Positions 8,907-10,126 of a DNA stretch of 44,207 nucleotides are shown in pieces. The stretch comes from a virus (Duplodnaviria; Heunggongvirae; Uroviricota; Caudoviricetes). Each line of letters opens with the position of its first letter. Within the stretch, counting starts at the first letter, position 1. The stretch lies in the IMG/VR virus record IMGVR_UViG_638341086_000016; one strand, written 5' to 3'. The notes under the pieces are model-generated. The model saw nothing but the letters and a program-made list of their open reading frames with translations, was not told the origin of the DNA and did no database searches. The position numbers and the translations under genes are program-made.

Positions 8907-10126
8907 TTTCCGCCTCCTGCATCCCGTCCCCGTTTGGCAGCCAGCGTCCAGCCTGATGAATGAGCTTCTCCGGGTTTATCACCGGTCATACTGTTGCAGT
9001 GCCACAGCGAGCCCCCCCACGTCACCGTATCGCCGGGGTGGTAGGTTTCACCGGCTCTGAACACACCGCGGTAGAGCATCACCGGCAGGGAAAATGTTTT
9101 TTCCGTACGCTGGCCACTGCTCTGCCGGACCACCACAGTGAACGACCGTTCGCCGGTCATGCTGACGTCAATATCGGCCACCCCGTCAACCAGGCATTCC
9201 CATCCCCGCATCCCGTGCGTTTTTTCATACGCCCGCCAGAGTCCACCCAGGTGTGTGGCATACGTGCCCCGGGGAAAGGATTTTTGATCGTCAATAGCGG
9301 GGAGCACTTCCAGTGCCGTGGCATCACGCCCGTCCTGCGGAGCCGGAAGGGCATTCACCGCCTCCAGAACCGCCTGCTGCAGTACATCCGGATCATAATC
9401 ACGACCATCACGCGGAGCAGGGATATGGCTTACAGCCTCTTTCACCATCTGCTCAAGCATCGGACGCACATCATCGGGGGTGATACTTTTGCCGTCCGCC
9501 GGTACCGGAATATTCGCAACCGCATCATTCACCGCCTGCTGCAGTACATCCGGATCATAATCACGACCGTCACGCGGAGCAGGGATATGGCTTACAGCCT
9601 CCTTCACCATCTGTTCAAGCATCGGACGCACATCATCGGGGGTGATACTTTTGCCGTCTGCCGGTACAGGAATGCTCCCGACAGCATCATTCACCACCTG
9701 CTTCAGTACTTCCGGATCGTAATCACGACCATCACGCGGAGCAGGGATATGGCTTACGGCCTCTTTCACCATCTGCTCAAGCATCGGACGCACATCATCG
9801 GGGGTGATACTTTTGCCGTCCGCCGGTACCGGAATATTCGCAACCGCATCATTCACCGCCTGCTGCAGTACATCCGGATCATAATCACGACCATCACGCG
9901 GTACCGGAATGGTCCCCACAGCGTCATCCACCATCGCCTGCAGAACCGGATGTACCTCATCCACCGTCACATGCTTCTGTAATACCGCCGACAGGGAAGC
10001 CAGTTTCTCTTCAAACGCTTGTGCCTGCGCGGCCATCTTCTCCTCAAATGTGCGCTGTAAATCCGCCAGCACCGTGGCGAATTCTTCGCCCAGTGCACGA
10101 ATAATGGACAGTTCCCGTTCCGTCAT
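8903..10126 (-). CDS. head-associated protein with three and a half 53-aa tandem repeats (possible decoration or scaffold-like protein)
   Basis: 407 aa; N-terminal coiled coil; repeat PRDGRDYDPDVLQQAVNDAVANIPVPADGKSITPDDVRPMLEQMVKEAVSHIPA; located between portal and connector genes. Confidence 0.5.
   Translation of the reverse strand: MTERELSIIRALGEEFATVLADLQRTFEEKMAAQAQAFEEKLASLSAVLQKHVTVDEVHPVLQAMVDDAVGTIPVPRDGRDYDPDVLQQAVNDAVANIPVPADGKSITPDDVRPMLEQMVKEAVSHIPAPRDGRDYDPEVLKQVVNDAVGSIPVPADGKSITPDDVRPMLEQMVKEAVSHIPAPRDGRDYDPDVLQQAVNDAVANIPVPADGKSITPDDVRPMLEQMVKEAVSHIPAPRDGRDYDPDVLQQAVLEAVNALPAPQDGRDATALEVLPAIDDQKSFPRGTYATHLGGLWRAYEKTHGMRGWECLVDGVADIDVSMTGERSFTVVVRQSSGQRTEKTFSLPVMLYRGVFRAGETYHPGDTVTWGGSLWHCNSMTGDKPGEAHSSGWTLAAKRGRDAGGGK
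9340..9952. repeat. in-frame tandem repeat, unit about 159 bp, about 3.5 copies
   Basis: Near-identical copies of ATTCACCGCCTGCTGCAGTACATCCGGATCATAATCACGACC... recur with a period of about 159 nt. Confidence 0.8.

Follow-up and report, generated by a model that had tools for sequence, protein, structure and literature searches.

Is the open reading frame that lies between the portal and connector genes of a tailed phage a gene in its own right or the detached end of a portal gene, and what might the tandem repeat within it be for? These questions are raised by ORF2 (8903..10126, minus strand), which encodes a 407-amino acid (aa) protein in the head module of the virus record IMGVR_UViG_638341086_000016; the whole stretch of 44,207 nucleotides is referred to here as the window. 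We conclude that ORF2 is a functional, separate gene, and neither a portal nor a dead portal fragment, because the frame is intact in loci where the two genes are split, the ratio of nonsynonymous to synonymous substitution rates (dN/dS) is 0.11–0.43, and the split form occurs in a plaque-forming phage. Its product is probably a portal-docked accessory protein in which the repeats set the length of a stalk. This estimate applies to architecture, gene status and the role of the repeats taken together rather than to location alone.

ORF2 is recognized by the open reading frame list, by its match to positions 455–859 of phrog_2271, by its family and by dN/dS. An initial sequence-only reading had placed the 407-aa protein between portal and connector genes, and domain matches bear this out: an HK97-type portal of 454 aa lies upstream (10123..11487, minus strand; PF04860, E 4e-81) and a gp6-like head-tail connector downstream (8580..8906; PF05135). 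The portal stop codon TGA (10125-10123) overlaps the ORF2 start codon ATG (10126-10124) within an ATGA (10123..10126, minus strand), and the reading frame of ORF2 is shifted by -1 from that of the portal. Junction alignment places a homopolymer of five G residues, G5, about 11–12 nt upstream of the ORF2 ATG (10138..10142, minus strand; C5 on the plus strand), and this run is likely to be the Shine-Dalgarno region of ORF2. The linkage of the two genes is widely conserved. A scan of species genomes using an 8-sequence alignment yielded 38 informative species-representative loci, spanning Enterobacterales, Pseudomonas, Pseudoduganella, Marinobacter, Haliea and many Alphaproteobacteria. Portal and ORF2 were adjacent and overlapping in 37 of them, the portal frame ended 7–120 nt inside the start of the frame encoding the C-terminal domain, and none was fused. 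All four metagenomic contexts were also portal-adjacent, three with separate genes (8-/11-nt overlaps or a 17-nt spacer) and one with a fused gene (P0239, 1,237 aa). The distant relatives have ordinary stop/start junctions that lack the G-run.

Among E. coli-type loci, the number of G residues in this run determines how many genes there are. G5 alleles, including that of the window, encode two proteins, and G6 alleles encode a single fused portal-ORF2 frame of 859–861 aa. The 407-aa protein described by the sequence-only reading is thus correct for the window and represents one of two allelic states. The junction reads TTC-AGGGGGG-AT in fused alleles, TTG-AGGGGG-AT in the window and TTC-AGGGGG-AT in the diverged locus L005, and the fused proteins join the portal tail straight to the N-terminal helix of ORF2 (...KAMFRG-DTEK-MTEREL). 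G-run length predicted the state of all 71 scorable IMG/VR loci, 42 of which were split (30 TTC, 12 TTG) and 29 fused; in ∼40% of E. coli-type loci, ORF2 thus continues from the C-terminus of the portal. Both states were found within most copy-number classes with several members (353, 405/407, 461 and 569 aa). One G5 locus differed from three G6 loci by a single base in the G-run over 2,521 nt; the change is therefore recurrent and recent, unless homopolymer errors in drafts produced the difference. The junction was present in 1,054 of 5,426 complete E. coli genomes, and in a spread sample of 60 E. coli rows the run had G5 length in 26 and G6 length in 34. That a single-G run toggles between free and portal-fused forms across roughly a fifth of E. 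coli genomes is out of the ordinary. An A-run in CGAAAATGA was also considered as the fusion/fission point and was ruled out, since the junctions and the DNA alignment put the extra base in the G-run. The fused form is viable, as phage 2851 has a single 859-aa frame. Phage vB_EcoS_phi330 was excluded from the evidence on gene structure because several of its head genes are broken up in the deposited sequence.

Database labels tie both frames to the portal. The profile phrog_2271 is an 859-position 'portal' in which the window portal covers positions 1–451 and ORF2 positions 455–859. A Pfam scan found no PF04860 portal domain in ORF2, and TIGR01537 covers residues 45–388 only in the fused 861-aa relative; the 'portal' label on ORF2 is therefore inherited from fused homologues. 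RefSeq shows one intact 861-aa portal in loci L004 and L006 and a 'frameshifted' portal pseudogene in L001 and L005, and phage submitters label the locus either as two 'portal proteins' or as a pseudogene. Such labels favor a reading in which the true gene is an 861-aa portal and a 1-bp deletion has left the 407-aa frame untranslated and decaying in a defective prophage. PGAP draws one 'phage portal protein, frameshifted' over both frames in G5 genomes, submitters enter Stx2a_F349, WGPS4 and WGPS8 under 'portal protein (pseudogene)', intact fused alleles exist, and Enterobacteria phage PPompW_132418 (L003, 3175-4399) has a second, disabling 1-bp insertion that truncates ORF2 at 110 aa, a case of genuine decay unlike the G5 state. 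Several observations nonetheless make a decaying remnant very unlikely. The two-gene form is the family norm, given that none of the species-representative loci was fused and that only 1 of 149 diverse family representatives contains a portal region. A complete ORF2 in a canonical length class is kept in 42 of 42 G5 loci, as opposed to truncation in 5 of 29 G6 loci. Outside the repeats, purifying selection is evident: dN/dS was 0.11–0.43 in split-split pairs, including one pair with a dS of 0.23, and 0.22–0.24 in two informative fused-fused pairs, a third pair being nearly identical. A conserved ATG, with the G-rich run ahead of it, overlaps the stop codon of the portal. Finally, the G5 junction is carried by Lys8385Vzw, a phage that forms plaques: after induction with mitomycin it was purified from single plaques and propagated on E. 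coli WG5, and imaging showed a siphovirus (PMC7946995).

A slightly less probable alternative still is that the G5 run promotes a programmed -1 frameshift, with some ribosomes slipping on it (AGG GGG A to ...GGG GAT), so that some portal-ORF2 fusion would be made alongside the 454-aa portal and virions would have a mixed portal ring. ORF2 is indeed in the -1 frame, a -1 slip on the run would recreate the exact fused sequence, and in the directly inspected G5 alleles both the run and its context are conserved. However, the portal-frame codons TTG AGG GGG ATA contain no canonical X XXY YYZ heptamer, G5 alleles carry either TTG or TTC ahead of the run, and the distant relatives overlap their stop and start codons with no G-run at all. 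An independent start with ATGA coupling is the simpler explanation of the data. We therefore return to ORF2 as a separate gene and conclude that the G6 fusion is a derived, tolerated state, with the 'frameshifted portal' label pointing the wrong way. The labelling affects roughly one in five complete E. coli genomes (1,054–1,246 of 5,426), including the Stx1a, Stx2a and Stx2c prophages of enterohemorrhagic E. coli. Because the two-gene form is ancestral and functional, calling such prophages defective on this basis is unsafe.

The family of ORF2 is very large, uncharacterized and strictly linked to the portal, yet it goes unseen under the label 'portal protein', which is likewise out of the ordinary. 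When 1.84 billion cluster representatives were searched and the family was counted as clusters at 50% identity, 5,621 relatives were found at E ≤ 1e-3 and 649 at E ≤ 1e-30. Most are stand-alone proteins of 240–700 aa in which the C-terminal ∼140 aa are conserved and the length of the preceding part varies. Their shared plan starts with an N-terminal helix, continues as a stalk that is acidic and modular, and closes with a C-terminal beta-domain that has a CBM5/12-like fold at its end. The helix-linker module of the stalk recurs from 0 to ∼25 times across the family: minimal members (167–221 aa) are almost stalk-free, and the long members are arrays of ∼25 helix-linker modules with a net charge of -27 to -55. 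Distant members repeat a P-x-P-x-(D/N)-G motif at a 25-/29-residue spacing, with as many as 17 occurrences under a strict pattern. Other genera have module types of their own: Rouxiella, for example, has a ∼21-aa unit (PELPDIEKMV...) repeated five times. Because the module recurs in distant members, it must be ancient. Some relatives also contain collagen-like G-x-D/G-x-y stretches, which in P0155 and P0125 follow the C-terminal domain. Among the papers found in a literature search, none describes the protein: nothing specific came up on a characterized homologue, on the portal of phage 2851 or on C-terminal extensions of portals. Homologues carry the recent Pfam accession PF28083.1, and the domain may thus already be catalogued under it.

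The same plan is evident in ORF2 itself. The full-length AlphaFold2 (AF2) model, built from a 60-sequence alignment, has a mean confidence score (pLDDT) of 72. It begins with a long alpha-helix at aa 3–50 (9977..10120, minus strand; pLDDT 80–94, above 90 for residues 1–40), which is presumed to serve as a docking or oligomerization element beside the portal C-terminus. A degenerate leading helix module (aa 51–72, ...VDEVHPVLQAMVDDAVGT; 9911..9976, minus strand), apparent from the sequence and from an AF2 helix at residues 55–71, precedes the first full repeat unit. Nine short, amphipathic helices of 13–17 residues make up the modelled stalk, each followed by a Pro/Gly/Asp linker of ∼12 residues (IP-x-P-x-DG-...). 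The repeat region is strongly acidic (net charge -19, isoelectric point (pI) 4.26), as is ORF2 as a whole (net charge -24, pI 4.76). The protein ends in an all-beta domain at aa ∼262–407 (8906..9343, minus strand). When modelled alone with 76 diverse sequences, this domain reached a pLDDT of 94, and its last ∼50 residues (∼8927-9079) have the small beta-fold of CBM5/12 modules, superposing on chitin-/cellulose-binding domains of that type (Foldseek, 1wvv_B, 48 columns, 1.6 Å). The PF02839 (CBM_5_12) profile is sub-threshold in ORF2 at 18.3 bits relative to a gathering cutoff of 26.2, with relatives scoring 21.9–24.8. The beta-sheet that precedes the CBM-like part gave no clear structural match. 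In BFVD, the nearest predicted viral folds are those of collagen-triple-helix repeat, ChiC_BD/CBM5-12, tail fibre and minor tail proteins. No NCBIfam model matches ORF2, and the Pfam matches to TetR_C_35, DUF4244, FliG_N and DUF4388 were rejected as sub-threshold repeat or helix noise.

Tandem Repeats Finder (TRF), the check proposed with the sequence-only reading, located the repeat at 9369..9901 (minus strand), with a period of 162 bp, 3.3 copies, 92% matches, no indels and a score of 961. It is the sole TRF array scoring ≥80 in the window. Gap-free extension carries the similarity out to 9330-9953, with spacings of 162 and 162. The units fall at aa 73–126, 127–180 and 181–234, with a partial fourth from aa 235 (9910-9749, 9748-9587, 9586-9425 and 9424-∼9368, minus strand), and the whole array is in frame within ORF2. 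The earlier description of about 3.5 repeats of 159 bp at 9340-9952 was therefore right about an in-frame array and wrong about its period and copy number; the 53-aa unit was a miscount, as the peptide quoted for it has 54 residues. The units called 'near-identical' share 88.9% (1 vs 2), 96.3% (1 vs 3) and 91.4% (2 vs 3) of their DNA sequence and 48–53 of 54 aa, and in every pair synonymous codon differences outnumber non-synonymous ones (10 vs 6, 4 vs 1 and 8 vs 5). The 54-aa repeat is itself not the elementary unit. It consists of two related helix-plus-linker modules of the ancient, family-wide kind, module A of 25 aa (IP-x-PRDGRDYDPDVLQQAVNDAVAN) and module B of 29 aa (IPVPADGKSITPDDVRPMLEQMVKEAVSH), and the 162-bp repeat of the window is a recent re-duplication of the A+B pair. 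'Spacer', a term the sequence-only reading had used, is a fair description of what the repeats encode. With a period that is a multiple of three, a head-to-tail arrangement and a copy number that differs among close relatives, the repeat is an ordinary in-frame variable-number tandem repeat (VNTR) in a phage structural gene. A 340-aa frame that spans the array on the plus strand (8960-9982) is taken to be a by-product of the stop-free repeat and not a gene, because homology, synteny and dN/dS all back the minus strand.

Recent expansion and copy-number variation between strains had been predicted from the sequence, and a comparison across related prophages supports both. ORF2 is 245, 299, 353, 407, 461, 515 or 569 aa long in related prophages and phages, always in 54-aa steps, corresponding to 0.3–6.3 copies in exact 162-bp steps. 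Phage records have locus spans of 1398, 1236 and 1074 bp, Lys8385Vzw has an ORF2 of 245 aa, three units fewer than the window, and ORF2 tails of 461 aa are found in the protein database. The IMG/VR loci fall into classes of 353, 405/407, 461, 515 and 569 aa, of which 407 aa is the commonest. Units from the same genome are often closer to one another than to their positional counterparts in other genomes. For example, units 1 and 2 of L005 are 97.5% identical to each other and only 87.7% and 83.3% identical to units 1 and 2 of the window, and units 2 and 3 of L006 are 98.1% identical. This homogenization within genomes is a signature of ongoing unequal exchange or conversion, and comparison of the sequences thus supports recent turnover of the array units.

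Might the count of 3.3 copies instead be wrong, with a 533-bp array of similar units having been collapsed or expanded in a short-read draft? The array exceeds typical short-read length, relative L106 has Ns within its own array, and the window contains 15 isolated Ns, as is typical of a consensus over several similar prophages. None of those Ns falls in the array, however, the three full units differ at 4–11% of positions and can therefore be told apart, and 407 aa is the commonest IMG/VR class. Closed genomes such as L001 (97.6% identical) also share the four-unit layout and the 407-aa frame. Because of this shared layout and the absence of Ns from the array, an assembly artefact is improbable. 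The Ns of the window lie at 8238, 21219-21481 (7 positions), 28111-28165, 29018, 30467, 30506 and 36712; seven of them cluster inside a nanS-p-like esterase gene, and the pattern suggests a consensus over several near-identical prophage copies in a draft assembly. The ORF2 homologue of L106 (Phytobacter diazotrophicus) has undergone its own recent and independent five-fold expansion of a ∼58-aa double unit, and the Ns in the middle of that array are direct evidence that such arrays break short-read assemblies. The 162-bp array is thus a potential prophage marker as well as a spot where short-read assemblies may go wrong.

What would the protein do in the virion? Its docking site, virion location and ligand are matters that we infer. 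Solved portals all have their C-termini on the lumenal (crown) side of the capsid, and proteins joined to the portal C-terminus by engineering are enclosed within the head. Since ORF2 is tolerated as a fusion to the portal C-terminus, its helix probably docks at the crown or the C-terminal tail. At least two lineages (the E. coli G6 alleles and P0239) have ORF2 attached to the portal C-terminus, and a Rhizobium phage may represent another. The genomic slot, which is that of the portal-binding internal SPP1 gp7/MuF proteins, points the same way. We propose that ORF2 would be translated right after the portal via the ATGA overlap and the G-rich Shine-Dalgarno-like run, and that its N-terminal helix would dock at the portal crown or C-terminal tail on the lumenal side of the portal vertex. 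The product may then be a portal-tethered, internal core-like extension or a component released with the DNA, as opposed to a shell decoration. Unequal recombination or slippage between units would add or remove 54 aa per event, and such a change would lengthen or shorten the stalk that separates the portal-proximal end from the terminal binding domain and leave the rest unaltered. A change from G5 to G6 fuses ORF2 in frame to the portal C-terminus, and both states persist in nature.

The suggestion that the repeats form a fibre or spacer on the capsid finds no support in the position of the gene, which is tied to the portal, overlapping it in 37 of 38 loci and fused to it in ∼40% of E. coli-type loci. 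The main rival, close to the earlier idea, is that ORF2 is an external neck or head whisker resembling T4 fibritin or collagen-like phage fibres, with the helix anchored near the portal vertex, the repeats forming an adjustable, segmented helical (possibly trimeric) shaft, and the tip binding a bacterial or mucus glycan. The CBM5/12-like terminal fold, the fold relatives in BFVD (collagen-repeat, tail-fibre and ChiC_BD phage proteins), the collagen-like G-x-y runs after the domain in P0155 and P0125, the acidic and highly length-variable stalk and the neck genes adjoining ORF2 (Ad1, Hc1) all speak for it. It is at odds with the in-frame portal fusions of viable phage 2851, of the E. coli-type G6 loci and of the P0239 lineage, as well as with the interior orientation of portal C-termini and of the engineered fusions described above, and Pfam, PHROGs and PDB sequence searches detected no neck-fibre homology. 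We regard this whisker as a possible but distinctly less probable arrangement. On location by itself, the odds are roughly a little better than even for a lumenal, portal-docked protein, lower for an external fibre and small for anything else.

A number of points weigh against the lumenal, portal-docked protein that we favor. Fusions are rare outside E. coli, and the topological argument thus rests on few lineages. The fused portal extension might merely be tolerated, and sequencing errors in homopolymers could account for some of the G5/G6 differences seen in draft assemblies. The CBM5/12-like tip, the collagen-like stretches, the acidity and the fast change in copy number are more typical of external fibres, and the known portal-adjacent internal proteins, gp7 and MuF, are basic. 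The stalk, predicted as a monomer, is modelled at a low pLDDT of 40–60. A PDB sequence search with ORF2 returned only chance-level matches to designed helical repeat proteins, which arise from its periodicity.

A bolder version, which we consider unlikely, is that the G5/G6 run acts as a heritable and often reversing switch that leaves a fibre-like glycan-binding protein free or locks it covalently onto all twelve portal subunits, giving two virion types per prophage lineage. In that event the family would be an unrecognized class of portal-tethered, length-tunable stalks, acting as a lumenal core or ejected anchor, in thousands of proteobacterial prophages where it is hidden as 'portal protein'. 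With its stalk of 0 to ∼25 helix-linker modules and its CBM5/12-like head, the family is a tractable target for cryo-electron microscopy and virion proteomics in Stx-type siphoviruses.

Several other features of the window and its relatives were recorded. A single 645-aa frame (11699-13636, minus strand) encodes a fusion of the prohead protease (Peptidase_S78) with the HK97-type major capsid protein, and the module order is TerL, protease-capsid, small ORF and portal instead of the usual TerL, portal, protease and capsid; the distant relatives L009 and L011 share this order. A conserved 73-aa hypothetical frame without a Pfam match (11433-11654, minus strand; RefSeq WP_001063025-type) overlaps the portal start. 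In the head modules of distant relatives, MptE-like, hexapeptide-transferase and methyltransferase matches were found (L007, 7588-8933; L008, 5920-8186; L011, 8106-8663). These genes follow closely downstream of the ORF2 homologue, with the connector and head-closure genes in between in L011, and make up a candidate sugar- or protein-modification cassette that the E. coli window lacks. The major tail tube protein (6653-7369, minus strand) has a C-terminal Ig-like domain (Ig_2 / I-set), and the homologous region of phi330 is auto-annotated as 'Hoc-like head decoration'. A 616-aa protein with DUF1737, SASA esterase and DUF6645 domains (20969-22819, minus strand) is the nanS-p-like sialate O-acetylesterase mentioned above, of a kind that Stx-type prophages typically encode in their late region. 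The window also has two KilAC antirepressor genes (18566-19261 and 26128-26856), and at its right end an IS-type transposase (rve, HTH_21) lies beside a prophage integrase (41204-42091, minus strand, and 42921-44207, plus strand).

Among characterized systems, the closest in genomic position are SPP1 gp7 and Mu gpF (MuF), including portal-MuF fusions and MuF polymorphic toxins. These proteins occupy the same slot directly downstream of the portal, are sometimes fused to it, and likewise have a largely helical N-terminal part followed by a variable C-terminal 'cargo' domain. SPP1 gp7 and MuF proteins bind the portal inside the capsid (PMC5576092, PMC4493119). However, no MuF domain (PF04233 / PF06152 or related) was found in ORF2 with Pfam at E ≤ 0.01, PHROGs or NCBIfam, nor among ten diverse family members scanned at E ≤ 0.001, and ORF2 is acidic (pI ∼4.8) where gp7-type proteins are basic (pI ∼9). 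For these two reasons ORF2 is not considered a member of the MuF family. It also has a repetitive stalk and a CBM-like beta-domain in place of a toxin or DNA-binding region. The C-terminal barrel of P22-type portals, a long helical extension into the lumen, offers a second parallel, since G6 alleles similarly extend the portal C-terminus by a long helix (ORF2 aa 3–50) and more. The two share no sequence relationship or detected fold, the extension is normally a separate polypeptide here, and ORF2 continues into a flexible modular stalk and a beta-domain with a length that varies between strains.

On the fibre side, T4 fibritin (Wac) and collagen-like or CBM-tipped fibres are likewise anchored by their N-terminus, continue as a segmented helical shaft with intervening loops and finish in a small C-terminal domain. 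Fold relatives of the ORF2 end domain are phage fibre proteins, and the ORF2 gene is next to neck genes. ORF2 differs from fibritin in lacking homology to it and a foldon, and its recurrent fusion to the portal C-terminus has no fibritin counterpart. Relative to the CBM5/12 modules of enzymes such as chitinases (ChBD), the module at the end of ORF2 stands in a phage head-module context and is preceded by a beta-sheet sub-domain without a match. Lastly, the array resembles the VNTRs of other phage structural genes, such as the Ig-like and collagen-like arrays of decoration and fibre proteins, in being in frame, variable in copy number and homogenized within genomes. It differs from these Ig and collagen VNTRs in that its unit is a pair of helix-linker modules and in that it resides in a portal-linked protein.

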